From: Tubulanus polymorphus
Taxonomy: Eukaryota; Animalia; Nemertea
Direction: 5' to 3'
NCBI RefSeq assembly: GCF_964204645.1
Contig: NC_134035.1
Span: forward strand, 8,278,451 to 8,342,450
DNA length: 64,000 nucleotides
Below, piece by piece: positions 1 to 39,735 of the stretch. Within the stretch, counting starts at the first letter, position 1. The number at the start of each line of letters is the position of its first letter. The notes under the pieces are model-generated. The model worked only from the letters and a program-made list of their open reading frames with translations, searched no databases and was not told where the DNA came from. The translations under genes were made by a program, and so were the position numbers.

Positions 1-69
1 TTAAATCCATTTGATGATAAAAGGCATATTTTAGATGATGGTATAAAAACATTACCTTATGGCCATTAA
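1..69 (+). CDS. Protein-primed family B DNA polymerase (pPolB), C-terminal end only
   Basis: Frame 1 reads LNPFDDKRHILDDGIKTLPYGH*, matching the conserved Polinton pPolB C-terminal motif (DDKR...GxxTLPYGH). The stop at 67-69 overlaps the stop of the convergent ORF (TTAA at 66-69). Confidence 0.88.
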   Translation, partial: LNPFDDKRHILDDGIKTLPYGH

Positions 70-1367
70 AACATAAAATCAATATCATCAAACTCGAAAT
101 CACTATTGGCTTCTTCATTTTCATTTAATTGTTCAGGTTCTTCTTCAATTCCATTTTTCTCATTTAAATAAATTTCTATCTTGTTCCACATTTCATCTCG
201 CTCTCTTTGTTTCTTTTTGTTTGTTAATTCATCAAATGGAATTATAATATCTAGGTTTAAATAATTTACAATCTTATTTAAAAAGAATTCATAATTTATT
301 GAATCTGTTATTCTATTTTCCAAATGATACATTAATATTTGTTTAAATATTTTTTTTATATTTTCCATATCTTCTTCTGTTAATTTAGGTTTTTCATAAT
401 AATCGTTAAATAATAAATATAAATACATTTTCTTTTGTTTTGTGTTAAATGTTGACGGAATAATTGTTTTTATAATATCTTTTTTAGTTATTTCACCATT
501 TTTATTTTCTATTATTTTCATTTTTTCAAGCCATTGCATATATTCTGGTGTATGATCTTCTATAGAAAATATTTTAAAAATTTCATCTAGATAATTTAAT
601 TTTGGTTCTATGAGAAAATCTCTAGTTTTTTCTTCACCCCATAAATTCTTTTGCCATCCACATTCAACACAAAATAACACAGCACCTTCTTGTCTTAAGG
701 TCGCATAACTACATTGTGGGCATTTTCGTTTATAATTTATTGGTAATAGATCTTCATTAAGCTCTTGGTATTTTCTTACGTTTTCTTTATGTTTTATTGT
801 TCTATTATGTAGATTTGAATTACTTGTTGTAATAATCAATTTACAATATTTACAATAATATGTTTTTCTTGTTAATTCATTATATTGTTTTTCTAACTTT
901 TCAACTGTTTCTTTATTATCTGGTAACGTTTTCTCATATTTTATTTTTTCTAATAAATTATTTTTTCTTTCATTGAATTCAGTTTCAAATTTATTAGAAA
1001 TTTTATCTATATGTGCTTTACGAAATTGATGATTCTCCCAATCTTCTATATTTTCAGGGTTATATTTTATTCGACAAGGCTCACAGAAATGATCTTTTAT
1101 ATTATCCTTATCATAGAATAAGAAAGGTCTTTTCCAAATAACTTCAGGTTCAACTTCGGCAGATTTACTATCAACATTAGCCGTTGCGCCATTAATTCTA
1201 CACTTCTCTGAATGTTTTTTAACATAATTTCTTGAGAATAATTTATTACATTTTGGGCAGTTTATTTTAGGGGGTTTATAATTTTCATCATGTTTTTTCA
1301 TATGTCGAGCCATATTACTTTTTCTTAGAAGTTCACCACAAATTTCGCATGCTATCTTCTCATCCAT
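66..1367 (-). CDS. Multi-zinc-finger protein with a C-terminal VLTF3 (poxvirus/NCLDV late transcription factor 3)-like region
   Basis: N-terminal C2H2-type fingers (CEICG..RHMKKH; CKYC..HNRTIKH) and a Zn ribbon CPQC-x12-CVECG. The C-terminal segments KPKLTEEDMENIKKIFKQI and SINYEFFLNKIVNYLNL...QRERDEMWNKI resemble VLTF3 motifs (PPx..E..L..MF..IQ; FLSYSYVLYK..ELL...D.IWKKI). Recognised by eye. Confidence 0.65.
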   Translation of the reverse strand: MDEKIACEICGELLRKSNMARHMKKHDENYKPPKINCPKCNKLFSRNYVKKHSEKCRINGATANVDSKSAEVEPEVIWKRPFLFYDKDNIKDHFCEPCRIKYNPENIEDWENHQFRKAHIDKISNKFETEFNERKNNLLEKIKYEKTLPDNKETVEKLEKQYNELTRKTYYCKYCKLIITTSNSNLHNRTIKHKENVRKYQELNEDLLPINYKRKCPQCSYATLRQEGAVLFCVECGWQKNLWGEEKTRDFLIEPKLNYLDEIFKIFSIEDHTPEYMQWLEKMKIIENKNGEITKKDIIKTIIPSTFNTKQKKMYLYLLFNDYYEKPKLTEEDMENIKKIFKQILMYHLENRITDSINYEFFLNKIVNYLNLDIIIPFDELTNKKKQRERDEMWNKIEIYLNEKNGIEEEPEQLNENEEANSDFEFDDIDFMF

Positions 1368-1435
1368 TTATTAAGGAAAAATTTTATTAAAATTAATTTT
1401 TAGTGATGAGCGGTAATTTTTTTATGTTATAAATA

Positions 1436-2188
1436 ATGGTAGAATTAAAAGAATACAGAATATTTGTAGATTCTAGAAGGCTTACAAATTATAAATCTCA
1501 TAATTTATTAATACAATTAGATAGAGAATTTAAGAATTGTGTTGATTTAAAATTAGTAAATATTAGTTTATGTAATTCTTTTTACAATGTAACGGATAAA
1601 AGTCTTGAACATTTAATTTTTTCAATCTTTTATAAAAAAAGGAATAAATGGTTTTTTATATATTTAAAACCAGGATTATATAATTTAAATACATTAGCAC
1701 AAGAAATTAATAGAAAAGCTCGAGCTAAATTAGGAAGTGATTCTGGATTTAATATTAGAATTTTAAAAAGTGCTAGTTCTAATAAAATAAAGATTAGGTT
1801 AGACGAACAATTTAAATTTACAGTAAGAAAACCTTTAGGTAAACTGTTAGGAATTGCCCCTGATATTGTTACAGCATACGCAGAAGGTAAATCAAACTTA
1901 ATGCCTTTTACACATTTTTATATTTATTGTAATTTAATCGATCCTACAAAAACATTCGAAGCAACTAAAGATATAACTTGTAATTCTGGTTTACTAAACA
2001 TTTTACCATTGAAGAATGTTAAAGAATTTGGAACGCAAATAAATTATAATTTAACAGAATGTGATTTCAAACCTTGTATTCCTCAATTTAATAATTTTGA
2101 ATTAGAAATAAGAAATCATAATGGATACTTAATTGATTTGAATAACTTTCCTGTAATTTATGAATTAGTTATAAGATGTAAAGAGTAA
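1436..2188 (+). CDS. Minor capsid protein (penton, single jelly-roll)
   Basis: Motif pattern typical of Polinton/PLV pentons: IFVDSR, LVNISLCNSFYNV, PGLYN, LGKLLG, YIYCNLID, LLNILP..FG..INY, ELEIRNHNGYLIDLNNFPV. Confidence 0.75.
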   Translation: MVELKEYRIFVDSRRLTNYKSHNLLIQLDREFKNCVDLKLVNISLCNSFYNVTDKSLEHLIFSIFYKKRNKWFFIYLKPGLYNLNTLAQEINRKARAKLGSDSGFNIRILKSASSNKIKIRLDEQFKFTVRKPLGKLLGIAPDIVTAYAEGKSNLMPFTHFYIYCNLIDPTKTFEATKDITCNSGLLNILPLKNVKEFGTQINYNLTECDFKPCIPQFNNFELEIRNHNGYLIDLNNFPVIYELVIRCKE

Positions 2189-2204
2189 TTTTTCACCTAT
2201 ATAA

Positions 2205-2558
2205 ATGAATATAACTGTTGGACCGAGTATATGTTTTGGTTTTGATTTTAAACGTGAGAAAGAAATGAAATTTAACATTAATGATGTAATAACACATATC
2301 AAAAATATTACATTTTCTAATGAAACAACATTTGAGTATGAAACAACAATAGATAAAGAAACTTTTAATGTAGAAAAGATTACTAATTTAATTAGAGAAT
2401 CTTTAAGATTTTATGAATTAGATGAAGATTTTATCATCGATGATATTAAAAAAATAATAATTGAAATATATACAAATGAAACTAGTAATGAAATAAATGT
2501 TGAATTAATCATAAATAAGTTAACTAAATATTTTGATGATAGTAATTTTTTTGATTAA
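2205..2558 (+). CDS. Viral hypothetical protein (acidic, 117 aa)
   Basis: Intact ORF in the tightly packed array; starts in TATATAAATG. Confidence 0.7.
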   Translation: MNITVGPSICFGFDFKREKEMKFNINDVITHIKNITFSNETTFEYETTIDKETFNVEKITNLIRESLRFYELDEDFIIDDIKKIIIEIYTNETSNEINVELIINKLTKYFDDSNFFD

Positions 2559-2561
2559 TAA

Positions 2562-2783
2562 ATGAGTGATAATAAGTGGATAATAACTGGATTATATAAT
2601 GGAGCATTACTATCAGTTGGAACTGTTGGTTATTCAATGGTATTAAAAAAAGTATTCAAAATGGGAAGTGTTAATGTTGATAGATTTGATATAAATGATA
2701 TTTTAAAGTTAACGTTAGCAATTACTTTATCTAATTTAACAATTGATTATTTGGAAAAACAAAAATATATTCCTCCCATATAA
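2562..2783 (+). CDS. Small viral membrane-associated protein (73 aa)
   Basis: Two hydrophobic/amphipathic segments; TAAATG start. Confidence 0.7.
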   Translation: MSDNKWIITGLYNGALLSVGTVGYSMVLKKVFKMGSVNVDRFDINDILKLTLAITLSNLTIDYLEKQKYIPPI

Positions 2784-2807
2784 ATGCATAATTTTTTTGC
2801 TAAATAA

Positions 2808-3230
2808 ATGGCTTCTGCAATTATAACTATTATAGGATCGGCAATTGTTAACGCTTTAGCATTTACAGGTGGTGGTTATTTATTTAAACATATTGATAAA
2901 AATAGTTCATTAGGAGAACAAAGAAGACATAACTTAGCGTTAGAGAAATATAATAAAGATGCAGAAGAATATAGAGAAAAGAGACAAAACTATATGGATT
3001 ACATCAATAAAGAATTATATGATCAGAAGATTTCACATAGAGATTTTCAATCAGTCGATGATGCAATGAGTTTATATAACGCAGTAACAAATAAAGAAAA
3101 ATTACATCTATACAAACCTAAATTATCAGATTATTATTCCCCAAGTAAAGAACAACAGAAATATGAAATAATATGGATTTTAGGTGGAACAGTTATTGTT
3201 ATATTTATTGCTTATAAGTTTACTAATTAG
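2808..3230 (+). CDS. Viral membrane protein with N- and C-terminal hydrophobic helices and a central coiled coil
   Basis: MASAIITIIGSAIVNALAFTGGGYLF...EQRRHNLALEKY...IIWILGGTVIVIFIAY; TAAATG start. Confidence 0.75.
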   Translation: MASAIITIIGSAIVNALAFTGGGYLFKHIDKNSSLGEQRRHNLALEKYNKDAEEYREKRQNYMDYINKELYDQKISHRDFQSVDDAMSLYNAVTNKEKLHLYKPKLSDYYSPSKEQQKYEIIWILGGTVIVIFIAYKFTN

Positions 3231-3249
3231 TAATTTTTATTCTAAATAA

Positions 3250-3684
3250 ATGGAAGATAAAGTTGATAGTATTGATATTATTCCTCATGATATAAATAAA
3301 ACTAAATTAAAAACATATTTAGAAAAACAAATATTAGAATTTGAAAGTGACTTAAAGATAAAAAAGAAAAAATATTTAAAAAGTAAAATTATATATTATT
3401 TGATTATCAGTGGTTCGGTTACAATTAGTTCTGTAATAACATTTCTAGCAATATTCAGTCCATTAACACCTTTAGCTATATCAATTGGTGTATTAGGATT
3501 AAGTTCAAGTGTTTTAACTGGTATAAGTTCAAAATTAAATATAAAAAGTAATAAAGAAAAAATAAAATCTAATATAAAAGAAATTAATAAATTAAAGAAC
3601 ACACTAGATTATATAATAAGTTTAAATGGTCATATAACAGTTGAAGAACAAGATAAATTATTAAAAGAATTAATAAATTATTAA
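3250..3684 (+). CDS. Viral 2-TM membrane protein flanked by coiled coils
   Basis: Two adjacent hydrophobic helices (IIYYLIISGSVTISSVITFLAIF; LAISIGVLGLSSSVLTGI); a homologous relic lies at ~32880-33090. Confidence 0.75.
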   Translation: MEDKVDSIDIIPHDINKTKLKTYLEKQILEFESDLKIKKKKYLKSKIIYYLIISGSVTISSVITFLAIFSPLTPLAISIGVLGLSSSVLTGISSKLNIKSNKEKIKSNIKEINKLKNTLDYIISLNGHITVEEQDKLLKELINY

Positions 3685-3700
3685 TTTTTTAATTATATAA

Positions 3701-5089
3701 ATGGTAGATAGTTTTCCAAAAGCTTTCCGATATAATAAATCAATTAAATATAATATTCCAGCAATAGATTTTAATAAAGATATTACATATAGAAATGAAG
3801 TTTTAAATTCATTAATTGATTTATATATTTATGTTACTGAAACTAATAATTTTAATGCAAAGATGGAAAATATATTTCATGTATATTTAATTAATTTTAA
3901 AAAATTGAAAGATGAAAAACAATGGTTATTAAAATCTAATATGAAGTATTGGCAGAACCAATTAAATTTTGCTGTTTATTGTGCAACAACAGGATGTGGA
4001 ATAAGTTGGAATGATCATTTGAATAATTCTAAATATAAACTAATTCAAAGTTTATTTAGATTTCATACATACTTTCAAATCAGAATAATATTAAATGAAT
4101 TAGAGTGCGCTTTACCAGGATCTAGATATTTTAAAGAATTGGATAATAATATTAATTTATCTAAGTTTTATAAAATTTGCAATGAATTTAATATAGATAT
4201 AAATAATTCTGATTTTAGAATAAAAATTGGAACAATAAGATCACTTCCTTGCCCTAGAAAGATTGCAGAATATTGTGCACTTCCCATACCATCTAATAGT
4301 TTTTATAATATCTATAATAATAAATTAGGTTATGGTAAAATAGAAACAAAGGATTTAGAAACATTCAATTTCAATAAATTACCAAAATTTTATGATAATT
4401 TAAAACAAGAAAACAATAATGGTTGGGTATATTTTATTTTAGAGAATAGTGAAGGTTTTACTAAATCAGGTATAGAAAGAATAAATCAATCTATTAGAAC
4501 TTATTTGATTTGTATTTTAGGTGCGCAAGTTGAAACAAGATCCCCAATAATTGGAAATTTGAATACATCATTCGATACACAAAAACAATTTAAAGTTTTA
4601 TTTGAAGATTCAATTCATAATGATAAAAATAGATCGATTCCAGAAAACATTATAAGATATCAAAATTATTTAGATAAATCTCATGTAAGACTTAATTATT
4701 GTATAGGCCCTAATCTATTAATTATTTCTAATGATTTAGTATTAAAGATGGGAAATATAATTGGTTATAATAATCTAATTAAAACTGCAACAATAAATAA
4801 TTCATTTGGATTAAATGATATAAATAAAAAGATTATTACTGCTCCAAAATTAATGGAAGGTGAAAAAAATAAAAAACATATTCAATCAACAGAAACTAAA
4901 ACTAAGAATATTAAATTAAATAATGATTCTAAAACAAAAGATTACAATACATCAGAAAATATTAGAACTGATAATATTCAACATGATATAATTAAACTAA
5001 ATGATGATAATAAATCACATGAAAATACTAAATTAGCTATAACTTGTATAGGAATTGTTATAGGAGGAATATTATATTTTAAATTTTAA
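3701..5089 (+). CDS. Viral protein with a C-terminal TM anchor (462 aa)
   Basis: Intact ORF with the motif WQNQLNFAVYCATTGCGIS and C-terminal LAITCIGIVIGGILYF; a homologous relic lies at ~33090-34390. Confidence 0.8.
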   Translation: MVDSFPKAFRYNKSIKYNIPAIDFNKDITYRNEVLNSLIDLYIYVTETNNFNAKMENIFHVYLINFKKLKDEKQWLLKSNMKYWQNQLNFAVYCATTGCGISWNDHLNNSKYKLIQSLFRFHTYFQIRIILNELECALPGSRYFKELDNNINLSKFYKICNEFNIDINNSDFRIKIGTIRSLPCPRKIAEYCALPIPSNSFYNIYNNKLGYGKIETKDLETFNFNKLPKFYDNLKQENNNGWVYFILENSEGFTKSGIERINQSIRTYLICILGAQVETRSPIIGNLNTSFDTQKQFKVLFEDSIHNDKNRSIPENIIRYQNYLDKSHVRLNYCIGPNLLIISNDLVLKMGNIIGYNNLIKTATINNSFGLNDINKKIITAPKLMEGEKNKKHIQSTETKTKNIKLNNDSKTKDYNTSENIRTDNIQHDIIKLNDDNKSHENTKLAITCIGIVIGGILYFKF

Positions 5090-5105
5090 TTTTTTTATTA
5101 TATAA

Positions 5106-6536
5106 ATGGATGTAGAAGGTGGAGAAGATATTGGAATGGATCCTTTTGATGAACCTAACATAACTGATGAACAACCACCTGATTTTGATGAAACAAGTTT
5201 TAATGATGGTAATGAACCAGAATATAACAATAATTTAAATATGCCTGATTATATTAAAAATGCTGAATCACAATTAAATCCTGAAAATTTAGACCCAGAT
5301 TTAGTAAAACAAGATTTAGATAATTTAAACAAAATACCTAAATTAGAAGATTTAATTGAAAAATCTAATTTTAACATAAATGATGAAGACGTTGCACTTT
5401 TAGCAGATCAATTAAAATTTTTAGATAATGGTAAATGTTATTATCGTTTGAAAGGTGATTATTATATTGATGTCACTTATAAAAATAATAAAAATAAAAT
5501 ATTATCAGAATCAACTTTAGAAAAATTAAAACCAGATAGAATTAAAATAATAAGTAATAGTAATGAAATAACTGATGTTACACAAAAAGAAATAGATGAT
5601 AATATAGATGTATTTAAACAAAGAATTAATGAATTATTTGAAATAATCAAAAAGAAATCAGAAACAACTTCTGAACAGAATATAACTTCCAAAAATAGTA
5701 AACATAGATCAAATAAAGTTCCAATTGAAAAACTTTTACCGAATGGATTACTTGATGCAACAGATCAAGAATTAGAAGATTTAGATATATTTTCTGATAA
5801 AGCAATTAGAGAAATTATTAGTATAAGACTTGCATCTGATAAAATTGCACATAATAAAAGTATAAGAGATTTTAAAATTAGAACTTTAGAAAAAGAATTA
5901 ACTGATAAAAATAAAGAAATAGAACAACTAAAGTCTGATTTAGATCATCAAGTAATTGATGAAATAGAATATAGGCAAAAAGAATTACGTTTAGAAAAAG
6001 AAAAAGATGATTTAGAATATAACATAGAATTACAAAAAGAAGAAATTAAATTATTGTTAAAATCATATGATTATAATATTAATAGATTAAAAGTTATTTT
6101 TAAAGATTTGTTGATTAAACCAAATTCTGAAATATCACTAAAAGACAGAATAAGATTATTATTTAAATTAGAAGGAATAACAATTCTTTCAATTCTAACA
6201 GCTGTAACTATGTTATTTACAACAATTGGTTTAGCTATATCAAATGCTTTAAAATCTACTCCCACTCCCAATAAACCAGATAAACCTCCAGGCAATAATT
6301 CTATACAAGATAAAGTTAAGGATGGTTTAAAGAAATTAGCAAAATATTTATGGGAACTATCTAAAAAATCTGCTGCAGCTTTACCAGGAGTTATTGCTTC
6401 AATTGTTGGTTTTATATTGAAATCTGCAGGAAACATTATTAACTTTGCTGCTGAACATATTATTTTATTTTTAATTACAGTTGTAAGTGCTATTATTTTT
6501 GGGTTAGTAAATATGATATCAAAAAATATTAAGTAA
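5106..6536 (+). CDS. Viral coiled-coil membrane protein (476 aa)
   Basis: Acidic N-terminus, long heptad region, and 2-3 C-terminal hydrophobic helices with a Pro-rich linker (PTPNKPDKPP); a homologous relic lies at ~34406-35765. Confidence 0.8.
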   Translation: MDVEGGEDIGMDPFDEPNITDEQPPDFDETSFNDGNEPEYNNNLNMPDYIKNAESQLNPENLDPDLVKQDLDNLNKIPKLEDLIEKSNFNINDEDVALLADQLKFLDNGKCYYRLKGDYYIDVTYKNNKNKILSESTLEKLKPDRIKIISNSNEITDVTQKEIDDNIDVFKQRINELFEIIKKKSETTSEQNITSKNSKHRSNKVPIEKLLPNGLLDATDQELEDLDIFSDKAIREIISIRLASDKIAHNKSIRDFKIRTLEKELTDKNKEIEQLKSDLDHQVIDEIEYRQKELRLEKEKDDLEYNIELQKEEIKLLLKSYDYNINRLKVIFKDLLIKPNSEISLKDRIRLLFKLEGITILSILTAVTMLFTTIGLAISNALKSTPTPNKPDKPPGNNSIQDKVKDGLKKLAKYLWELSKKSAAALPGVIASIVGFILKSAGNIINFAAEHIILFLITVVSAIIFGLVNMISKNIK

Positions 6537-6577
6537 ACCATGATTAAAAATAAATAATTAATTTTTTTGTTAAATAA

Positions 6578-7825
6578 ATGAGTGGGAGTTATATAAGTCC
6601 TTCGAAGAATCATAGAATATCTAATGCTATTAAAGCAGAGAGATCACATCATATAATTACTCATAACCCTTCTAATATTAATCCCGATGAAACTTTATAC
6701 GTTAGAATCCCTCGATTAACACAAAATACTTTTTATGTTCCAAACAGTATTTATTTATCAGCCGATATAAAAGTAACTGGCCATGATAACAATTATGTTG
6801 TTGATAATGTTGGAAGATATTTGATTAAAAAGTTAACAATAAAGATTGGTCCGGAAACAGTTTTCTCATTAGATGATTATAATTTATTTATGCATTATAA
6901 AGATTTATGGTTAACTAAAGAAAATAGAAATAATATGATATTTCAAGGCATCCAATCGGAAAACCATAATAAATTAAGATCTGAAGCCAATAATGCAGTA
7001 GTAACTCGTGCCACAGATAATTTGATTAAAAAGATTTATGGAAGCAAATATAAAATTCCATTAGACTTTGAATTGATAAATAATAATGCACCTTTATATA
7101 AATACGCAATTCAAGAAGATATTATATTTGAGATAACATTTGCTCCTGTAAATGAAATTGTATTATCTAGCGTTGTTAAAGATATGGGTTATAAATTATC
7201 GAATATATGTTTAGAATATAACACAGTAACTAATGAAAATATTGCTAGCACAATTCAAACTCAATACAATCAAGGATTTTCATTATTATATGATTATATT
7301 GATAAATTTAAAACTGTAACTATTAATGCAAATGATGAAATAATTAATGAGAATATTAACTTTCCTAGAAGATCTATTAAAGGTATATTAATATTTTTTA
7401 CTATTGCAACATATTCTAATGGTGCAATAAATGTTGATAATTATTATAATCCTGAAATAACAAAAGTAGAAATAACTATCGAAGGTATAGCGAATAAAAT
7501 ATTTTGTCAAGGAATGAGAATGATTGATCAATGGCCAGAAATTAGAAAACATTTTATGAATGAAAAAGTGAAATCATTTGAAAATTGTAACATTAATCAA
7601 ATTGATTATTATACTGGTAATAAATATGCATTATGGTTAGATTTTAGAACAACTGAAGATAACTTATTACATGGTTCTGGAAAAAAACTACAAAATACAA
7701 AAGATGGAATACAATTATTCATGAAAAAGAATAAAGGAATCAAAAATTTTAAAATGCACATTTATATTATATCTGACGCGCAATTAAATATTGTAAATTC
7801 ACAATTAGATAGTATTCAATATTAG
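6578..7825 (+). CDS. Major capsid protein (probable double jelly-roll)
   Basis: 415 aa, beta-rich, adjacent to integrase and ATPase. Motifs NPSNINPDETLYVRIP, LIKKLTIKIG, YKIPLDF, YKLSNICLEY, INFPRRSIKGILIFF and YALWLDFRT...LHGSG resemble Polinton/PLV MCPs. Confidence 0.8.
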   Translation: MSGSYISPSKNHRISNAIKAERSHHIITHNPSNINPDETLYVRIPRLTQNTFYVPNSIYLSADIKVTGHDNNYVVDNVGRYLIKKLTIKIGPETVFSLDDYNLFMHYKDLWLTKENRNNMIFQGIQSENHNKLRSEANNAVVTRATDNLIKKIYGSKYKIPLDFELINNNAPLYKYAIQEDIIFEITFAPVNEIVLSSVVKDMGYKLSNICLEYNTVTNENIASTIQTQYNQGFSLLYDYIDKFKTVTINANDEIINENINFPRRSIKGILIFFTIATYSNGAINVDNYYNPEITKVEITIEGIANKIFCQGMRMIDQWPEIRKHFMNEKVKSFENCNINQIDYYTGNKYALWLDFRTTEDNLLHGSGKKLQNTKDGIQLFMKKNKGIKNFKMHIYIISDAQLNIVNSQLDSIQY

Positions 7826-7855
7826 AAATATAAAGTTAAAATTAAGCGTATATAA

Positions 7856-8983
7856 ATGGGAGGTAAAAAATCTCCTAATACTAAAGAACAATATTTAAGA
7901 AATTTATATTACAACCCTGAGAGTTCGGTTGCTTATTCTTCTACTAAAAATATATGGCGTAAAGTAAAACAAGATAAATTAGATAAGATAATCCCACACA
8001 ATTTAATTAAATATAAAGATATAAATGAATTTATGTTAGAACAACCAACGTATACAACACATAAAAAAATTGTTAGAAAATATGAAACTCGTAAAACTAT
8101 GGTAAGTTATGTAGATCAACAGTGGCAAGGAGATTTAATTGATATGAAAAATGTTAAGAAAGATAATGATGATTATTGGTGGTTATTGAATATAATTGAT
8201 ATTTTTAGTCGTTATGTATGGAGTTTCCCACTTTATAGAAAAGATGCTGTACAAACATCAAATGTTTTAAGAAAATTTCTTTCGGATGATAAACTAAAAC
8301 CAGAAAAAATACAATTTGATGATGGAAAAGAATTTGATAATTCACTTGTTCATGAACTCTTAGATAATCATAATATTAAATATTTTTCAACAAAATCAGA
8401 TAAAAAAGCAGCAGTTGTTGAACGATTTAATAGAACATTAAGAACAAGAATGTGGAAATATTTTACAGCAAATAATACTTTTAAATGGATTGATGTTATA
8501 CCAAAATTGATAGAAGGATATAATAATTCTTATCATTCTTCTATTGGAATGAAACCTATTGATGCTAGAAAATCTGAAAATGCTGAAATTGTTTGGAATA
8601 ATTTATATGGAGCATTTCTTATAGATGATTTTGGTGAACCTAAATTTAAAGTTGGTCAAAATGTTAGAATTTCTAAGTATAAAAAGATATTTGATAAAGG
8701 ATACGATCGAAATTTTACTAGAGAAATATATAGAATAAAAAAGGTAATAACAACAAAACCATATGTCTATAAATTAGAAGATTTAGATGGTGAAGAAGTT
8801 GATGGCTACTTTTACGAAGAAGAATTAAGTTTAACTACTGAAAATCTAGAACAAGAATATAAAATTGAAAAAGTATTAAAAACAAAAACTATTAAAAGAA
8901 AAAAATATTCTTTAGTAAAATGGGTTGGATGGCCAGATAAATTTAATGAATGGATATTATCAAGTAAAATTAAAAATATATAA
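7856..8983 (+). CDS. Retroviral-type (rve) DDE integrase with C-terminal chromodomain
   Basis: WQGDLID, IDIFSRY, QFDDGKEF and VERFNRTLR (DDE triad intact), YNNSYHSSIGMKP, and the chromodomain YKIEKVL..YSLVKWVGWPDKFNEWI. Confidence 0.95.
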   Translation: MGGKKSPNTKEQYLRNLYYNPESSVAYSSTKNIWRKVKQDKLDKIIPHNLIKYKDINEFMLEQPTYTTHKKIVRKYETRKTMVSYVDQQWQGDLIDMKNVKKDNDDYWWLLNIIDIFSRYVWSFPLYRKDAVQTSNVLRKFLSDDKLKPEKIQFDDGKEFDNSLVHELLDNHNIKYFSTKSDKKAAVVERFNRTLRTRMWKYFTANNTFKWIDVIPKLIEGYNNSYHSSIGMKPIDARKSENAEIVWNNLYGAFLIDDFGEPKFKVGQNVRISKYKKIFDKGYDRNFTREIYRIKKVITTKPYVYKLEDLDGEEVDGYFYEEELSLTTENLEQEYKIEKVLKTKTIKRKKYSLVKWVGWPDKFNEWILSSKIKNI

Positions 8984-9592
8984 ATGAATAAGGAATTATT
9001 CATATTTGAGCCTCATAATATGTTAATTTCTGGTGTAACAAATTGTGGAAAAACTTATTTTATATTACATTTATTAGAAACTGTTTATGAAAACTATTTT
9101 GATAATATAGTATTATTTTGTCCAACATATGAATTTAATCAAACTTATGATAGAAATATTACTAGGAATAATAAATTTATTATATTAGATCCTAAAACAG
9201 TAAAAGAAAATTTAGATAATTGTATTAAAATAGCAATTGATATTTATAAAGGATCAAATACATTATTTATCATAGATGATTGTGCAAATTTACATGATTC
9301 TAAAATTAGAGAAAGTGAGTTATGTTATTTAGCTTTCTCTGGGAGACATTTTGGGATAACAACTTGGGTTTTAAATCAAAAATATAATTCAATTGTTAAA
9401 GACTTTAGAGAAAACATTAGATTTCTAGTTTTATTCTACAATAAAGATAGAAAATCAATGAAAAATGCACTTGAGGAAAATGATATTATTCCACATGATT
9501 TACATAATGAATATATGGATGAGTTGAAAAATATTAAAAGATCAAAATTACTATTTAGATTACAACACCCATTTAAATATGAATTTATTTAA
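8984..9592 (+). CDS. A32/FtsK-HerA family genome-packaging ATPase
   Basis: Walker A GVTNCGKT, Walker B FIIDD, GRH motif, downstream Q and REN; abuts the integrase stop (TAAATG). Confidence 0.92.
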   Translation: MNKELFIFEPHNMLISGVTNCGKTYFILHLLETVYENYFDNIVLFCPTYEFNQTYDRNITRNNKFIILDPKTVKENLDNCIKIAIDIYKGSNTLFIIDDCANLHDSKIRESELCYLAFSGRHFGITTWVLNQKYNSIVKDFRENIRFLVLFYNKDRKSMKNALEENDIIPHDLHNEYMDELKNIKRSKLLFRLQHPFKYEFI

Positions 9593-9595
9593 ATT

Positions 9596-9845
9596 CAATT
9601 AGTTTGTTAATCTAGTTGAATTCTAGTTATTGGTAGTTGTAACAAAAATCAAATAGATTTAACAATATTTTAACTAGCTTGTTAATCTATTTTAATTCTA
9701 GTTACATTCTAATTGAATTCTAGTTGTTAATAGTTGAAACAAAAAATCAACTAAATTTAACAAGAAATAAATAAAAACAACAATATTTCAACTAGCTTGT
9801 TAATCTAGTTGAATTCTAGTTACATTCTAGTTAAATTCTAGTTGC
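9596..9845. repeat. Intergenic imperfect repeat array inside the viral element
   Basis: Reiterated ~11-bp unit TTCTAGTT(GAA/ACA) nested in ~120-bp repeats (AACAATATTTyAACTAGCTTGTTAATCTA at ~9661 and ~9779); no ORF. Confidence 0.8.
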
Positions 9846-9877
9846 AACATCACACAATTAATTTTTTTGTTATATAA

Positions 9878-10483
9878 ATGGTAGGTGAAAAGAAAATAAA
9901 ATCTAAAAATGGTGATGTTCCAATTGAAAAAACTTTAGATAATTTAGGAATAACAGAAACAAAATTAACTCCAGATGATGGTGCTTTAAATAATGTTACA
10001 ACAAATAATAATTATGAATATTATCTTTATTGTAAACATCAATTAGAAATATTAATAGCATCTGGAAAATGTAAAAATTTTGTCGGTAAAAATTTAACTT
10101 ATAATGAATTAGACACAATGAAATCAGATGAAATTATTAAATTATTTAAGATTTATGAAGCCGCGAGAACAGCTAGAATTAATGACGCGATATCAGAAAA
10201 AGTAGTAAAAGGTTATAGTAAATTATGTAATTATATACTACCAATTGAAGATGAAAATAGATTATATTCCGATTTAAAAAATGATTATTTAGTTATGACT
10301 GAATTAAATAAATGGATTGGATATTTATCATTTCAATTAGGTGGATTTATGACATTATTATCAACTGGAGTTATAACATTTTCAAATATTGAAAGTAAAA
10401 ATATTTCTATAATAAATGAGCGAGGTGAAAGAAGTGAAGGAATTACCTGTGAAGAAAAAACCGAGAACTCAGAAACAAATTGA
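9878..10483 (+). CDS. Viral hypothetical protein (201 aa, hydrophobic segment near the C-terminus)
   Basis: Intact ORF with TATATAAATG start. Confidence 0.75.
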   Translation: MVGEKKIKSKNGDVPIEKTLDNLGITETKLTPDDGALNNVTTNNNYEYYLYCKHQLEILIASGKCKNFVGKNLTYNELDTMKSDEIIKLFKIYEAARTARINDAISEKVVKGYSKLCNYILPIEDENRLYSDLKNDYLVMTELNKWIGYLSFQLGGFMTLLSTGVITFSNIESKNISIINERGERSEGITCEEKTENSETN

Positions 10484-10793
10484 ATGGTCTCGGCAATTAG
10501 GAATTAAATCACAAGAATATAAAAAAGCTGTAAAAGAAAAAATAAGTAATAAAAATGTTAATAAAAATGGTGAAAATATTGTTATTTCTACTCCTTCTAA
10601 TGATAGAATATTTGATAAATGTCTATATTTTACAGTTGGATTTGTAATTGTATTCATTTTGATTGGGTGTAATTGGTATAAGAAATCAAATAAAATTCAT
10701 GATATTAATAATTCTGAACCAACTGCTATCAAAAATGAAAGTACTTCTGAAATTCCAAAAATTGATAATAAAAAAAATGGATTAATATTTTAG
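10416..10793 (+). CDS. Viral single-pass membrane protein with a basic N-terminus
   Basis: KKKPRTQKQIEW followed by the TM CLYFTVGFVIVFILIGC; the ATAAATG start lies inside the upstream ORF. Confidence 0.7.
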   Translation: MSEVKEVKELPVKKKPRTQKQIEWSRQLGIKSQEYKKAVKEKISNKNVNKNGENIVISTPSNDRIFDKCLYFTVGFVIVFILIGCNWYKKSNKIHDINNSEPTAIKNESTSEIPKIDNKKNGLIF

Positions 10794-10949
10794 AAAAAAA
10801 GCAAAAAAAAATAATTTTTTTAAATTAATTGAATATTAATTGAATATCTCACTACTTTTGTCTATCTATGTGGAGCAATTAAATTGTCCAGATAAGTCAT
10901 TTCGGATTCTAGATATTCATTATTTTTATTAATTTATTTTTTTTAAAAT

Positions 10950-11276
10950 TTAATCAACAATTTCTAAATCATGATGACCGTCTTCATTTTTTCCATGATA
11001 TATTATTTTAAATCCTACTAAATCTTTCAATTCCTCCGTACTCAATGAAACCCATTTATCGGGTAAAAACACTTTAAATTCTCGCGATGTACTAACATTA
11101 CAGTAGCTTAAATTAGCTGATACTTTCTCTCCATATTTAGTTTTTATCTTTTCTAATTTCAATATTTTATGTTCAATTTCTTTTGTAACATCAACTAACT
11201 TTTTTATTTCAAATTGTTTTTTTGCTGGTTTTATTCTGTTATTTATTGTTGCTAAGAATGCTTTTCTATCTCCCAT
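10950..11276 (-). CDS. Small viral protein, possible OB-fold ssDNA-binding protein
   Basis: KILKLEKIKTKYGEKV...FKVFLPDKW...IIYHGK beta-strand pattern; TATAAATG start next to the terminal repeat. The fold is an inference. Confidence 0.6.
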   Translation of the reverse strand: MGDRKAFLATINNRIKPAKKQFEIKKLVDVTKEIEHKILKLEKIKTKYGEKVSANLSYCNVSTSREFKVFLPDKWVSLSTEELKDLVGFKIIYHGKNEDGHHDLEIVD

Positions 11277-11281
11277 TTATA

Positions 11282-11412
11282 AGGAAAAAAAATTACTTGT
11301 GGTGATGAGTAGGAAAAAAAAAATTACTTGTGGTGATGAGTGGTGTCTCGTCCTCTCGTCCTCTGATCTGAAACCCTACTTTTCTAATTACTAATTTGGG
11401 TTTAAGACTACT
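11282..11412. repeat. Right terminal (inverted) repeat region of the element, with a ~30-bp direct duplication
   Basis: AGGAAAAAAAATTACTTGTGGTGATGAGT x2, CTCGTCCT x2, ending in ACTACT. The reverse complement of ~11330-11395 aligns to ~38412-38475. Confidence 0.8.
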
Positions 11413-11585
11413 AGAGACCCTGCAGTGCAAGTCATCAGGCTGTACTTAGAAATTGGATACCGGCAACGCTACTGAAGGGAGCGAGAACTCAGCGGACCCA
11501 TTAAGGCAATGGGCGCCATGTGCTTGTGCCATTGCGCAATGCATTAAACTTTTCTTATATCCTTAGATTTTGTTATTGATTTCAG

Positions 11586-11875
11586 AGAAATCGGAAGGCC
11601 AGGAACAGAACGGACGAATCCTCTATTATCCCGGTGCGTTATCGGCAGGCGAACACCTAGGTCAGCGGCAGTTTTTTGACTTGCACGAATGCAATCCGTC
11701 ACCTCTACCTCAAAGATATCCGGGCGAGTACGTTCCGCCGGTGCCGTTGTCCAGCGTCGCCGGTCAACAGTGCGAGCTGCCGCTTCTCTGGGATTACGGG
11801 CAAATCGACGGCCCGGGCGCCAAACAAACACTTCCGTTACACTCACGCGCGAGCGACGAAGCACCAATCACGTGA
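11586..11875 (+). CDS. Candidate terminal exon of an unidentified host gene
   Basis: Pyrimidine-rich acceptor (TTTCAG 11580-11585), CpG-rich open frame to TGA, AATAAA at 12007-12012. No recognisable domain. Confidence 0.3.
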
Positions 11876-12406
11876 CCAGGCTCTTCCCGAATATCAGCGT
11901 TAAGAACTCACGACGATGACGTCAGCGAGAATTGGAAAAATGGGGCCGACGATAATTATTACTAGACGATAGGGTGTCGGTGATCGTTGAAGGGACATTT
12001 CATTCAAATAAAAAGGCAACATATCTTTGGATAAATTTGTGCGATAGATGGCGTTTGTTTATATATCGTGACGTGATGAAAATGAAATAATAATCAACTG
12101 TTATATACTGTATCTTTGTATGCTGAAAAACGTATTTCTCTGCCACCGACAATCCTCGAAGAAAAAGCCACAACAACTTAAAGAAACTATTTTATTATTT
12201 AACCGTTTTAATATGTATATTATATGTATATATCTCTATTTACTTTATGAATTACTCTGAAATCGTCGTGTATTCGTCGTTGTTATCGTGAGAATTATAT
12301 CTTTGTTTAATACATAGATTTAACGTCATTTACGAATTAAACCCAACATTGAGATGTATCAAGCGAAAATAATATTTTTTTGTTTCCGTTAAATAAGTTC
12401 CCGGGA

Positions 12407-32877: not shown

Positions 32878-35790
32878 TAAATTTGGAAAAACAAATATTA
32901 GAATTTGAAAATGAATTGAAAATCTTAAAAAAATTCTTTAAAAAGCAAAATTATATATTATTTTATTATCAGTGGTTCGGTTGAAATTAGTTCTGTAATA
33001 ACATTTTTAGCAATATTCTCACCATTAACACCTTAAGCTATATCAATTGGCGTGCTGGGATTAAGTTCTAGTGTATTGACTGGCGTAAATTCATTAATTA
33101 ATTCATTAATTAATTTAGATATTTATGTTACTGAAACTTATAATTTTGTAATAATGTAAAGATGGAAAATATATTTCATGTATACTTAATTAATTTAAAA
33201 AAATTTAAAGATGAAAAGCAATGGTTGTTAAAATCTAATATGAAGTATTGACAAAACCAATTAAATTTTGCAGTTTATTGAGCAAGAACAGGATGTGGAA
33301 ATAGTTGGAATGATCATTTAAATAATTCAAAATATAAATTAATGCAAAGTTTTTTTGGATTTCATACTTATTTTCAAATTAGATTTATATTAAATGAATT
33401 AGAATGTCCTTTACCAGGATCTAGATATTTTAAAGAATTAGATAATAATATTAATTTATCAAAGTTTTATAAAGTTTGTAATGAATTTAATATAAATATA
33501 AATAATTTTGATTTTCGAACAAAAATTGGAACAATTGGATCAATTCCTTGTCCTGAAAATATTTCACAAAATTGCACACTTCCCATACCATCTTATTGTT
33601 TTTATAATAGCTATAATAATAAATTAGGTCATGGTAAAATAGAAAATATGGATTTAAAAACATTAAATTTCAACAAATTACCGAAATTTTATGATAATTT
33701 AAAACAAGAAAATAATAATGGTTGGGTTCATTTTACTTTAGAAAATAGAGAAGGTTTTACAAAATAAGGTTTACAACGAATAAATCAATCTATTAGAATA
33801 TATTTGATTTGTATATTAGGATAACAGGTTGAAACAAGATCCCCAATAATTGGAAATTTAAATACATCATTTGATACACAAAGACAATTCAAAGTATGAT
33901 TTGAAGATTCAATTCATAATGATAAAAAATAGATCAATTCCAGACAATATATAAGATATCAAAATTATTTAGATAAATCTCATGTAAGATTAAATTATAG
34001 AAAAGGTCCTAATTTATTAATTATTTCTGATGATATAATTTTTTAAATGGGAAATATGATTGGTTATAATAATTTAATCAAGACTGCAACAATAAATAAT
34101 TCATTTGGATTAAATGATATAAATAAAAAAGTTATCATTGCTTCAAAACTAATGGAAGGTGAAAAAATTAAAAAAAATTATGCAATCAACAGAAACTAAA
34201 ACAAAGAATATTAAATTAAATAATGATTCTAAAATAAAAGATTATAATACATCAGAAAATATAAAAACTGATATTATTCAGCATGAAATAATTTAAAGTA
34301 ATAATGATGATAAATCACATGAAAATATCAAATGAGCTATAAATTGTATAGGAATTGTAATAGGAGGAATATTATATTTTACATTTTAATCTTCATAAGA
34401 TATAAATGGATGTAGAAGGTGGAGAAGATATTCCAATGGATACTTTTGATGAACCCGGTATAACCGATGAACAACAACCTGATTTTACTGATACAAGTTT
34501 GAGTAACGATAATGAAACAGCATATGATTCTAATCAGCAAGACCTGATACTAATGAATATGTTAATAAAGCACGTTCAAGATTGAATATTGAAAATATAA
34601 ATCCAGGACTAGAAAAAAAGAATTAGAATATGATGAATTAATTGAAAAATTTAAACCAATATTAAAAAAATCTCGATTCAATATAACTAATAAAGGTATG
34701 ATTTATTAAGTAAAAGATTTGAAATATTCAAATGGTGATTATCATTGGCATTTGAAAGATGACTATTATTTTAAGATATCTTGATAAAGTCTTGATAAAA
34801 TAATAAGTTAAAAGTCTTGATAAAATGATATCAAAACCAACTTTAATTAAATTAGAACAATCTTGAATTAGGAAAATCAATAATGATGTTATAACTGATG
34901 TTACTGAACAAGAGATAACACTAAATAAAAGAGAATTTAATCGAAGAAATGATGATTTTTTGAAGATAATTAATGAAGATTTAGAACCAGAAACAATTCC
35001 TAAAGAAGTTGTTAATTCCAATACTAGTAAACTTAAATCAAGAAGATTTCAATCTGAAAACAATTTACAGAATGGATTTTCTGACGCAACAAAAATTAGA
35101 AGATCTAAATATATTTTCTGATAAAGCAATTAGAGAAATAATATGTATAAGAAATGAAGCTCATAAAATTGCGCACGATAAAATGATTAGATATCAAAAT
35201 GATTACTTAAGAAGATGAATTATCTACAGCAAATGAAGAATTAAAACAATCAAAATCAGATTTAGATCATCAAGTAATTGATGCAATTGAATAAAAAATC
35301 ATATGATTATAATATTAATAGATTAAAAGTTATCTTTAGAGATTTGTTGATAAAACCAAATTCTAAAGTATCATTGAAAGATGGAATTAAATTATTATTT
35401 AAATTAGAAGGTATCACAATTCTTTCAATTCTAACAGCTGTAACTATGATATTTACAACAATAGGTTTAGCTATATCAAATTCATTAAAACCTACACCGA
35501 ATCCTAATAAACCAGATAAACCTCAGTCATAAAAGTCATAATTCTAAACAGGATAAAGCTAAAGATGGTTTGAAAAAGTAAGCAAAATATTTATGGGAAT
35601 TATCTAAAAAATCTGCTGCAGCTTTACCCGGAGTTACAGCATCAATAATATTGTTGGTTTTGTTTTAAATCTGCTGGAAATATCATTAGCTTTGCTGCTG
35701 AACATATAATTTTATTTTTAATTACAGTTGTGCTGTGCAATTATTTTTGGATTAGTGAATATGATAAAAAAATAAATAATTAATTTTTTT
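32878..35790 (+). pseudogene. Decayed copy of the Polinton membrane-gene block (homologous to ~3315-6570)
   Basis: Long near-identical nucleotide stretches to ORFs 3250, 3701 and 5106, with in-frame stops (e.g. TATTGA for TATTGG at ~33247), frameshifts and internal deletions (near 33090 and 35283). Retains TATAAATG at the start of the 5106 homologue (~34406). Confidence 0.93.
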
Positions 35791-36544: not shown

Positions 36545-37489
36545 ATGGCTGCAACTTCAGTTCCTCAGAACCGCACAAATCCATCAATCGCCTACACAAC
36601 CATCGTACTGGCTGCAACTACGATGAACGGAACTTATCTTTGGTTTTTCCTCGCATTCGTCAGTCTTTTTTTTATTCTAGGATTCATCGGTAATCTGCTG
36701 ATCGTAGTAGTGATGCAGCAACGTAAGCTATGGCGACGTTCTTTCAGTCGTATGTTCGTTCAGCTAGCCGTCTGCGACACTTTGGTTCTCCTCAACCATT
36801 TGATGAGATACATCAACGTTATATCTTATACATTTCACGGGAGGAAAATATTGGTCAAACCGTCAACACGAATTCAATGTATGTTTTTTGAGTATTTTGT
36901 AATGGTTGGCCTTTCGAGCAGTCCGTGGACGCTGGTCCTCGTATCTACCGAGCGAATGTGTGTTGTTTGTTTTCCGTTTAGAGGTCCTCGTTTCTGGAGC
37001 CCGAATACCGCTTCTATACTCTGCTTCTCCGTAATCTGCTTCATAGCGCTAATTCATAGTTCTATATTCATAACTATCGACGTTAGTGACTACGTTTGTA
37101 TTGAAAATGAGCCAATATTTAACAGGCCTTTGCTGTCGTCTATTATCATCTCTATAGGCCCGTTTATTTCGTTAACCATCATGTCTGCAATAACTTCTAT
37201 CGTTTTATTCCGAAAAAAAGGTAAATCAGAAACAACTCGAGCATCGAAATTCTCAAACCAGGTAACCGTGTTGGTTCTGCTACTGTGCATCTTCTTCATG
37301 GTAACAACATTCCCTACTGCTTTATTAAGCCCTTTTGTCGGAACAATTCCACAAGCAAAAGACATTTTCGCCGCCCTCGCCGATATTTTGATGATAAATT
37401 ATTCGTTTAATCTCTACTTGTATCTGATGACGGGCAGAGAAATCAGAAAAGAATTGAAAAATTTGATTTTCAAAAAGGGATCGTCTTGA
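36545..37489 (+). CDS. Intronless class A (rhodopsin-like) GPCR, invertebrate orphan peptide-receptor type
   Basis: Seven hydrophobic helices; GFIGN (TM1), LAVCD (TM2), STERMCVVCFP (DRY-like), NYSFNLYLY (TM7). First ATG at 36545. Confidence 0.92.
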   Translation: MAATSVPQNRTNPSIAYTTIVLAATTMNGTYLWFFLAFVSLFFILGFIGNLLIVVVMQQRKLWRRSFSRMFVQLAVCDTLVLLNHLMRYINVISYTFHGRKILVKPSTRIQCMFFEYFVMVGLSSSPWTLVLVSTERMCVVCFPFRGPRFWSPNTASILCFSVICFIALIHSSIFITIDVSDYVCIENEPIFNRPLLSSIIISIGPFISLTIMSAITSIVLFRKKGKSETTRASKFSNQVTVLVLLLCIFFMVTTFPTALLSPFVGTIPQAKDIFAALADILMINYSFNLYLYLMTGREIRKELKNLIFKKGSS

Positions 37490-38410: not shown

Positions 38411-38411
38411 T

Positions 38412-39735
38412 CAGTAATTGCAAAATCAGAGTTGCAGATCAGAGGGCGAGAGGGAGTCACATCACTCATCACCACTCATTGATTTTTCTTCATTATAAAT
38501 GGGAGAGAGTGAGTTCCAAACAGAAAAAATTTGATGTCTATAAAAATGAATATTATTGCCCATATTGTAAAAAATACATAGATAAATCACACAAATATCG
38601 GAATGAAAAAACTGTAAAACATAGAAAAAATTTTATAGATTTTGAGACACCAGAAAATTCCAATGAAAGAAAAGGACAATTAGAAAATATGAAAATAGAT
38701 GAAATTAGATGCGATGTTTGTAAAGAATCTATAATAAAAAGGAATTCTAAAAGACATCTTCAATAAAAAAGACATCAACAAAATTCAAGTAAAAATATTT
38801 TAAAGATCCATAGATGAAGCAAAAACAGTACAAATCTCATTTTCTAATGAGTAATATATATTTATTAAGCGAACGTTTTCGGGAGTTACATTATCCCCTC
38901 TTCGGGCTTAGAGCAAGTGATTAAATTTACGTATCATACTGGTATTTATATAGAATAAGACGAAGCTAATTACAAACGATTTCACATTACTGAGTGACAA
39001 GATAATTACAATACAAAGATAATTAATGACACACAATCTAAATTACTGAGTGAAGATATTTGACTAGTAGTTAATTATCTAAAACATTGAGAATGAATCC
39101 TGAGCCGTGTTCGAATAGTTGTTGATTAAGGGAGTGCTGTTGAGTTTTGATAAAGTGCTCCTCTAATTTTGCAATCTAAATCAGAAGATCCTTTATATAA
39201 AATTTTGAAATTCTTTTCGCTAAACGGGACCTGACAGTCATGGCAATTTGACAGCGAATAAAAAGTCAAAAAAGTAATGAAATGTTTCCGAATAATTCAA
39301 AATTTTCAACAGAAAAGGATATTGAAGCATCATCTTATATTGAATTACCATTTACAACAAAAGCAGTGATTTATGTTCAAGATGATGACAATAAATGTTT
39401 TTTATGGTCAATTATAGGTTGTTTTCACCCTGCTGAGGAAAATATTTGTAGAATTACAGATACCGGAAATATGAAACATTACATAAAATTGATCAATATC
39501 CAGTTACTATAGAAATGATACCAAAAATAGAAAAAGTGAATAATTTAAAATTAGATACATTCGAATTAATGCAATTACCAGTTACAAAAGGCGATAATAT
39601 TAAAGATAACACATTAGAAGCTTTATATTTAACAGGAAAATGTGATGATGAAAATTGTATAGATTTATTATACTTTAAAATAAAAAAGATGAAAATGAAT
39701 ATTATATGAGGTGAAAACAAATATATTTATTATTC
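38412..39735 (+). pseudogene. Decayed left end of a related Polinton: TIR remnant, Zn-finger ORF and pPolB N-terminal fragment
   Basis: 38412-38475 aligns to the reverse complement of the right TIR; TATAAATG at 38494-38501; fingers YYCPYC..KH and CDVC..RH similar to ORF 66-1367; SSYIELPF..KAVIYVQDDDNKCFLWSIIGCFHP is the typical Polinton pPolB N-terminal motif. Contains stops and frameshifts. Confidence 0.8.
38850..39260 (-). mobile_element. Penelope-like element 3' fragment (GIY-YIG tail plus hammerhead-like motif) inserted in the Polinton relic
   Basis: Minus strand FSEKNFKILY...LEEHFIK..HSLNQQL resembles a PLE endonuclease C-terminus; CCGAAGAggggataatgtaactcccGAAAACGTTC at ~38870-38906. 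Confidence 0.65.

Follow-up and report, generated by a model that had tools for sequence, protein, structure and literature searches.

Which transcription machinery reads the genes of a virus-like element residing in an animal chromosome, when nearly all of them begin in the same poxvirus-like sequence? The question is raised by a 64,000-nucleotide stretch of the nemertean Tubulanus polymorphus (NC_134035.1, positions 8,278,451 to 8,342,450; hereafter the window), in which positions 1 to ~11412 belong to a Polinton-like element of 23% GC within an animal genome of ~39% GC. For animal Polintons, gene expression and helper dependence are open and no virions have been seen (10.64898/2026.06.19.733378; here and below, statements from the literature refer to the accessible portions of the sources). 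Judged from sequence, the element appears to carry a real, clade-specific promoter-like system of poxvirus type together with a matching captured transcription factor. The reading favoured here, with a probability of about 60%, is that of a virophage-like Polinton of a hypothetical pox-like helper virus, in which the motif would act as the promoter.

A motif shared by the gene starts of the element

Fourteen open reading frames (ORFs) of the element were considered, i.e., the 25 ATG-initiated ORFs of at least 50 aa in positions 1-13000 minus five antisense shadow ORFs in the element and six host-side ORFs. A preliminary description of the locus, whose ORF coordinates all proved correct, had reported that 13 of the 14 start in ATAAATG and that 11 have an upstream T-run, and had called for a comparison with internal ATGs. 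Both counts stand up to it. ATAA|ATG (the A after the bar in TAA|AT being +1, and the motif being anchored at its 5' edge) is found at 13/14 ORF starts vs 12/398 non-start ATGs in the element (Fisher p=5e-17), and an AAT5+ run ending 6-12 nt before the ATG at 11/14 starts vs 2/398 other ATGs (p=2e-17). Distances within the motif are exact, with AA at -18/-17, T at -14, and A at -4 shared by 14/14 cases; T at -12 (9 nt upstream of TAAAT) is seen in 12/14, and TAA at -19 to -17 in 13/14, compared with 9/209 for the remaining TAAAT sites of the element (p=2e-14). The initiator-like TAAAT(G) lies over the start codon in 13 of the 14 genes; in the 14th, ORF 1436, it is offset by 3 nt, and the spacing fits when the motif is anchored on this upstream TAAAT (the orthologue in the related locus L001 starts TAA|ATG). 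Genes devoid of the T-run (7856, 8984, and 10416) have the same anchor, with AAAAT/AAATT. A pattern derived post hoc from the window starts matches 16 sites in the 64 kb (both strands searched), and 13 of these are gene starts.

Across the whole window, TAAATG is not enriched (98 occurrences vs 85.8 +/- 9.3 in shuffled sequence), hence the signal is positional. This lack of overall enrichment would also fit a compositional artefact of a tightly packed genome with 23% GC, as would the definition of ORFs by the first ATG after a stop, which favours an in-frame TAA before the ATG (a control with in-frame methionine codons is void for TAA, since an in-frame TAA is a stop). Such an origin is nevertheless scarcely credible in view of the contrast with other ATGs, the independent upstream anchor, the presence of the motif in related loci of 36-44% GC, and its absence from 8/8 AT-rich outgroup capsid starts.

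Two further statements of the preliminary description hold in part. It had claimed that no host gene in the window starts in this way; the two GPCR (G protein-coupled receptor)-like ORFs checked do not, but one of the 27 host-side ORFs of at least 80 aa begins TAA|ATG, with the core absent. It had also placed the motif in both degraded copies of the element: the copy at 38499 retains the T-run, whereas that at 34406 retains the TAA at -19 and ATAAATG but has lost it.

The motif could conceivably act on the RNA or on translation, by stop-restart coupling on a polycistronic mRNA, as a trans-splice acceptor, or as start-codon context. The start at 8984 abuts the upstream stop codon, that at 2562 is 3 nt away from one, and three upstream stops coincide with the -19 TAA (Table 1); the T-runs resemble pyrimidine tracts and poly(T) terminators of the type found in African swine fever virus (ASFV) (PMC7163114), and a second role as terminator is possible. 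However, the motif is complete at divergent or terminal starts with no upstream gene (1367-, 1436+, and 11276-) and also where gaps of 41 and 285 nt precede it, while any AG within 15 nt occurs in only 6 of the 52 starts in the clade described below. In addition, the T at -3 is the reverse of the outgroup context, and the rigid 16-bp spacing of the two TAA words would be typical of DNA recognition. We regard an action at the RNA level as very unlikely.

Restriction of the motif to one clade

Relatives of the element comprise the best 80 of 230 confirmed metagenome loci, fetched with an alignment of 35 capsid proteins. In a quick IQ-TREE phylogeny of the capsid (71 rows, midpoint root), the capsid start is readable in 63 cases; it reads TAA|ATG in 14 of the 15 members of one clade (clade A, SH-aLRT 98) and in 0 of the 48 others. 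The sole exception within clade A, L061, has TAAATGA ahead of its ATG. The GC content of clade A members ranges from 20 to 44%, while none of the eight AT-rich relatives (GC <=36%) outside the clade, with starts defined alike, has a TAA|ATG capsid start. The motif is thus inherited, independent of GC content, and lineage-specific, which is the outcome of the repetition across related Polintons that had been proposed at the outset.

Start contexts of other genes agree with this distribution. When genes defined by homology are compared in 61 of the 81 sequences, with near-duplicates and ungrouped loci omitted, TAA|ATG is found at 45/52 clade A starts, compared with 0/29, 2/25, 0/118, and 2/86 in the other groups. 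T at -3 occurs likewise at 45/52 clade A starts, whereas the other groups mostly have a purine at this position (23/29, 12/25, 92/118, and 63/86, respectively). T at -12 is present in 48/51 TAA|ATG starts from 12 other clade A loci, selected on TAAATG only. As clade members are related, these counts do not represent independent events. The close relative L001 has the same promoter motif before a deoxynucleoside kinase gene (L001:10340-10981; PF01712, E 2e-31).

A VLTF3-type gene within the element

The ORF at 66-1367, overlooked in the preliminary description, encodes zinc fingers followed by a zinc ribbon and a helical VLTF3/A2 domain (~aa 206-419, window 111-752), and its predicted identity as a VLTF3/A2-type late transcription factor is solid in terms of homology. 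A word-index search with the VLTF3 region gave no match; an exhaustive phmmer search of 1.84 billion proteins gave four matches at E<=0.001, three of them of Polinton type (e.g., P0121, which closely matches the N-terminus of the last ORF of L001). The sole non-Polinton-type match, P0124, contains Pox_VLTF3 and an A2L ribbon, matches PF04947 at 1e-24, and is close to a named entomopoxvirus VLTF-3. A profile of the four Polinton-type rows alone scores five full-length entomopox-type proteins with E-values from 1e-12 to 6e-7 (nominal database of one million), and 28 of 30 ESM Atlas matches carry the Pox_VLTF3 set (best score 0.96). With an AlphaFold model (pLDDT 77, from 5 sequences) as query, Foldseek ranks cowpox A2/VLTF3 first (E 5.7e-6) and entomopox VLTF3 third and fifth, followed by VLTF3s of other nucleocytoplasmic large DNA viruses (NCLDVs); no PDB entry was matched at E<=0.001. 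ENA contigs of 12,994 nt are the source of protein P0123 as well as of the 54%-identical capsid P0024, a hint that a second element of clade A might possess VLTF3.

In the sister clade (clade B), L052 and L060 (47-49% GC) encode short VLTF3-like ORFs without an obvious zinc ribbon (L052:6543-7049 and L060:5082-5576). These match PF04947 with E-values of 6e-4 and 4e-5, one value being below the cut-off and the other close to it, do not match clade A or entomopox profiles (hhalign 1-3%), and are barely detected by the clade A VLTF3 profile alone (E 0.8). Their genes are preceded by TTTC, 7-11 nt, and TATA: by this post hoc pattern, an ATG follows within 15 nt for 6/6 matches in L052 and 6/10 in L060, the shuffled means being 1.7 and 2.0 matches. 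The arrangement resembles the late layout of ASFV, a TATTT core with a TATA initiator (PMC5294985, PMC7163114), although TATAG could also be a splice acceptor. The outgroup elements L019 and L067, bounded by terminal inverted repeats (TIRs), showed neither a VLTF3 nor a motif of clade A or sister-clade type, with the proviso that a very divergent VLTF3 could escape detection. Between the two clades, the type of motif tracks the type of VLTF3. A 109-aa ORF at the corresponding position in the outgroup elements was considered as VLTF3 and rejected (hhalign 0%).

Group C (L047, L055, L063, and L080) displays yet another context, with starts often reading TATAT|ATG (TATATG in 7/25) and TTTAAA near -30, possibly a third promoter type. 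A TATA box at -30 is doubtful for the distant relatives, with TTTAAA in 12/25 group C starts and ATTAAA scattered in group D.

Helper virus or host polymerase

Vaccinia late promoters possess a T-containing core 5-7 bp from TAAAT(G/A) (PMC5294985) and a conserved T at the 10th nt upstream of TAAAT, whereas in intermediate promoters a T follows an AT-rich stretch located 15-19 nt upstream (PMC11980589). The window motif shares with these post-replicative promoters the T-rich core, TAAAT(G) over the start codon, the T ~9-10 nt upstream, and the A/T-rich anchor 15-19 nt upstream followed by T. Since late and intermediate features are combined, 'post-replicative (intermediate/late)' is a safer label than 'late'. 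Unlike in vaccinia, a single promoter class with rigid spacing serves all genes of a ~15-17-kb integrated element, in the visible part of which no RNA polymerase was detected.

The motif is probably a poxvirus-type post-replicative promoter, with an upstream core and a TAAAT initiator over the start codon. According to the favoured reading, the RNA polymerase reading such promoters would come from a co-infecting pox-like large DNA virus and be aided by the VLTF3/A2-type factor of the element. Transcription would start within the AAA of TAAAT, and polymerase slippage, which at the initiator generates 5' poly(A) leaders in vaccinia and yeast linear plasmids (PMC6211774), would convert the poor -3 T context to A and provide the mRNA with a usable leader. 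The T at -3 in clade A, as opposed to mostly a purine elsewhere, speaks against a Kozak signal and agrees with A leaders made by slippage. All genes, including the integrase and VLTF3 genes, would constitute one class, silent until helper late factors arrive, as in the pattern of mavirus and Cafeteria roenbergensis virus (CroV); because even the VLTF3 gene shares this promoter class, an external trigger likely starts expression. The VLTF3 of the element might then amplify the helper machinery or divert it onto its own promoters.

A canonical start by TATA-binding protein (TBP) and RNA polymerase II (Pol II) is located 25-30 nt downstream of the motif (PMC5294985) and would lie inside the ORF wherever the motif reads TATATAAA and thereby abuts the ATG. 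Neither an RNA polymerase nor a capping enzyme was detected in the 14 ORFs or the accessory ORFs scanned, the left arm of the element lying beyond the window, and no poxvirus RNA polymerase subunit was found among the 38 ORFs and proteins scanned. In a relative, the contig with the VLTF3 cluster measures 16.9 kb, and L001 shows 11.5 kb of that gene set; by this indirect argument, an element of ~17 kb has little room for a multisubunit polymerase. The preliminary description had proposed transcription by cytoplasmic machinery of pox/NCLDV type, as in a virophage. The pox-type, clade-specific, and GC-independent architecture, the lack of a visible RNA polymerase, and the pox-like VLTF3 support the type of machinery, while 'cytoplasmic' cannot cover the whole cycle, since an integrated copy must first be transcribed in the nucleus.

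Several observations weigh against a pox-like helper. The motif is matched only in part by an entomopoxvirus benchmark (nine TAAATG genes in the 20-kb L081), in which T-19, A-18, and T-14 occur in 7, 8, and 8 genes, and T-12, T-13, and A-17 in 3, 3, and 2, respectively. The window protein has no direct match to PF04947 (Pfam) at E up to 10, so that the gathering threshold is not reached; by three other methods, it is a divergent member of this family. In the Foldseek results, non-pox VLTF3s have E-values within ~2 logs and rank 2 is unnamed; the pox affinity is one of rankings rather than of phylogeny, and AT-driven composition could favour entomopox matches. VLTF3 also occurs in viruses that lack an RNA polymerase and are thought to use the nucleus (PMC11253617, PMC8400408). 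Finally, AATAAA is not avoided on the coding strand of the window (55 vs 47.5 expected), a measure that does not discriminate, as outgroup D behaves alike (observed/expected ratios: window 1.16, clade A 0.93, B 0.51, C 1.06, D 0.92, and E 0.20). TTTTTNT is depleted, but so are A-runs, which makes it equally non-discriminating.

The VLTF3 gene strengthens the pox link and at the same time opens a helper-free explanation, in which the VLTF3 (zinc ribbon and helical domain) would steer the Pol II/TBP of the host, within the nucleus, to a core-plus-TAAAT promoter, the motif having been inherited with the captured factor. The concordance of motif and VLTF3 types across two clades is in keeping with it, as are the many divergent integrated copies of the element and the retention of VLTF3 without an RNA polymerase in the mriyaviruses and medusavirus. 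Speculatively, the extra zinc fingers and the word CTCATCAC, present close to the VLTF3 gene and in the terminus, might set expression going. This word, to which the zinc fingers or a host factor might bind, occurs at 1403-1410 (upstream of the VLTF3 gene), 11302-11309 and 11333-11340 (terminal region), and 38465-38472 (relic 2), and was not seen in L001. On the other hand, the VLTF3 gene stands behind the same promoter, leaving no visible early class. Vaccinia requires A1, A2, and G8, whereas the window yielded neither a VLTF2/A1 nor a G8 partner, and the scan of accessory ORFs likewise no VLTF2; mriyaviruses retain VLTF2 with VLTF3. Furthermore, TAAAT initiation without slippage would leave a ~2-nt leader with T at -3, and the structural similarity of VLTF3 to TFIIB is not significant (E 0.26). 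A helper-free switch appears unlikely, yet it is the most serious alternative to the helper virus.

If a helper is needed, 5' ends should fall within TAAAT and bear A leaders, the element should be silent in the absence of infection, and the 22-bp motif should be active in cells infected by a poxvirus; these predictions follow from the element-wide promoter, the matching captured factor, and the contrast between clades. Helper dependence, if true, would extend the mavirus provirophage model to animals and point to a hidden pox-like virus, while the helper-free explanation, if true, would provide a minimal system in which to study how VLTF3, a hallmark gene of NCLDVs, acts with the Pol II of the host. 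A broader scenario, rather doubtful at present, is that this Polinton lineage consists of endogenous virophages which adapt to different large-DNA-virus helpers by exchanging a captured late transcription factor along with the promoters of all genes, with a poxvirus-type VLTF3 and TAAATG in clade A and another VLTF3 and an asfarvirus-like T-core/TATA in its sister; it would predict an undiscovered pox-like virus and a genome-encoded defence.

Relation to known systems

Helper-matched promoters in protist virophages, Polinton-like viruses (PLVs) in entomopoxvirus occlusion bodies, and VLTF3 in some polintoviruses are all known. Full-text literature searches, screened by title and abstract and with most subscription papers outside their scope, returned no report of a pox-type promoter in an animal Polinton. 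Mavirus promoters match the late motif of CroV, and integrated copies are induced by CroV, for which a late factor entering the nucleus has been proposed (10.1101/068312). The window element resembles the mavirus/EMALE provirophages of Cafeteria in being integrated, rve-bearing, and AT-rich, with genes under a shared promoter motif (giant-virus late in their case; 10.1101/068312). In contrast to the protist host, TCTA motif of CroV, and demonstrated helper of mavirus, it has an animal host, a pox-type motif, its own VLTF3, and no known helper. Closer in setting are the entomopoxvirus-associated PLVs (Barth et al. 2024, PMC11296320), Polinton-like elements for which parasitism on poxviruses in animals has been proposed; unlike the window element, they come from occlusion bodies and differ in gene content (protease and L2 mu core in the portion accessible). 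The accessible main text of that report has no wording on promoters, TAAAT, motifs, or transcription, and its accessible supplement none on VLTF.

The genes that characterize Mavericks/Polintons are found in the element: pPolB (only its tail in the window), an rve integrase with chromodomain, an A32 ATPase, and capsid genes. Together with the Polinton-type end, they link it to animal Mavericks/Polintons (Polintoviricetes, 'adintoviruses') and coral polintoviruses. VLTF3 has been reported in some coral elements (PMC11131425) and in some polintoviruses (PMC8502044, 10.64898/2026.06.19.733378); the word promoter is absent from the accessible text of PMC11131425 and PMC8502044. Unlike those Mavericks, the element has no detected cysteine protease in its visible part, and its capsid groups with clusters of NCLDV/PLV-like type. 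Possibly it is one of the animal PLVs that Bellas and Sommaruga 2026 noted as lying outside the two Maverick groups. The mriyaviruses and medusavirus, which have VLTF3 without an RNA polymerase, are larger, and mriyaviruses also retain VLTF2; the accessible accounts describe no TAAATG promoter (PMC11253617, PMC8400408), and the accessible text of the egovirus preprint contains none on promoters (10.1101/2024.03.23.586382).

The yeast cytoplasmic linear plasmids are comparable in other respects. They are not known to have a capsid or integrase. They are protein-primed linear DNAs with a TAAAN initiator and 5' poly(A) formed by slippage and, unlike the window element, encode their own RNA polymerase and capping enzyme and have an early-type upstream sequence (PMC6211774).

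The element and its host setting

The features of the window are compiled in Table 1. Only the right end of the element is included, beginning with the tail of a DNA polymerase, which we take to be of the protein-primed family (pPolB); TIRs are present in the relatives L019 and L067, and the terminal ACTACT is the reverse complement of AGTAGT near the left end of L019. Many divergent copies of the element exist in the host species: only 1,796 of the 38,251 aligned reads of run X6 are at least 99% identical. A contig set that may derive from RNA (X8) gave no alignment to positions 1-10800, which speaks neither for nor against transcription. Both relics in the window belong to the same family and lie within 30 kb of the element.

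Table 1 Motifs, genes, and other features of the element and its relics (window coordinates)
Position	Strand	Feature	Remark
1..69	+	C-terminal 22 codons of likely protein-primed DNA polymerase	continues beyond the window; matching tail motif in L039
66..1367	-	VLTF3/A2-type ORF, 433 aa	N-terminal C2H2/U1-type zinc fingers
1365..1386	-	motif of VLTF3 gene	
1414..1438	+	motif of ORF 1436	TAAAT 3 nt before ATG
1436..2188	+	ORF, 250 aa, likely minor capsid protein	weak DUF5901 match only
2186..2207	+	motif of ORF 2205	upstream stop codon is the -19 TAA
2543..2564	+	motif of ORF 2562	mostly within coding end of ORF 2205
2789..2810	+	motif of ORF 2808	
3231..3252	+	motif of ORF 3250	
starts 3250	+	ORF 3250	weak SLATT-like match
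3682..3703	+	motif of ORF 3701 (462 aa)	upstream stop is the -19 TAA
5087..5108	+	motif of ORF 5106	upstream stop is the -19 TAA
6559..6580	+	motif of major capsid gene	
6578..7825	+	likely double-jelly-roll (DJR) major capsid protein	weak Capsid_N match; ESM Atlas neighbours: Capsid_N, DJR-like, Capsid_NCLDV
7837..7858	+	motif of integrase gene	A-rich variant
7856..8983	+	rve integrase with chromodomain	
8965..8986	+	motif of ATPase gene	A-rich variant; inside integrase C-terminus; integrase stop is the TAA of TAAATG
8984..9592	+	A32-type packaging ATPase	
9859..9880	+	motif of ORF 9878	past 285-bp intergenic repeat region
10397..10418	+	motif of ORF 10416	A-rich variant; inside ORF 9878 coding sequence
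11266..11412		right terminal region	duplicated 26-bp unit with CTCATCAC; last bases ACTACT
11274..11295	-	motif of terminal 108-aa ORF	inner edge of terminal region
starts 11276	-	terminal 108-aa ORF	
~32950-35780		relic 1, degraded copy	covers five genes, interrupted by stops and frameshifts
34387..34408	+	motif in relic 1	anchor and ATAAATG kept, T-run lost
38409-38860		relic 2, degraded	part 78-85% identical to terminal region of element
38480..38501	+	motif in relic 2	in copy of terminal region

Apart from the genes discussed above, the 462-aa protein (3701-5089) is family-wide (28 loci), with invariant Cys/His residues and a confident core model (overall pLDDT 68), and had no match in Pfam, PDB sequences, or BFVD; as far as the model allows, it is not recognisable as a polymerase or capping enzyme. 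A membrane-containing particle is suggested by proteins, small or of coiled-coil type and with hydrophobic segments, that occur throughout the family (2562-2783, 2808-3230, and 5106-6536). Among the 14 visible ORFs, no maturation protease was seen and no adenovirus-type cysteine protease, a feature of Group 1 Mavericks (adintoviruses), detected (the left arm is beyond the window); the latter was likewise not detected among the ORFs scanned from the TIR-bounded relatives. PHROGs profiles matched none of the 11 proteins searched, and PDB sequence searches with VLTF3, the 462-aa protein, and the capsid gave nothing significant. The 285-bp non-coding stretch at 9593-9877, which has a matching position in L001, contains a duplication spaced by 118 bp and repeated CTAGTT words, and is possibly an origin or packaging signal.

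Elsewhere in the family, a weak HNH match stands beside the integrase in L002 (L002:5568-6083), and an endonuclease VII-like domain lies within the polymerase ORFs of L019 and L039. Scans of viral contigs with the capsid, the capsid alignment, and P0123 gave no match, nor did a scan of genome contigs with the ATPase. Capsid homologues 55% identical to that of the window (P0046 cluster) are annotated on short contigs in several Bartonella assemblies and are likely to represent carried-over DNA of the host animals. In the host part of the window, sequence appearance suggests intronless GPCR-like ORFs at 36545-37489 (+) and 45275-46297 (-) and cytochrome P450-like exons at 12400-15010 (-), and a 30-bp tandem repeat extends over 40983-41571.

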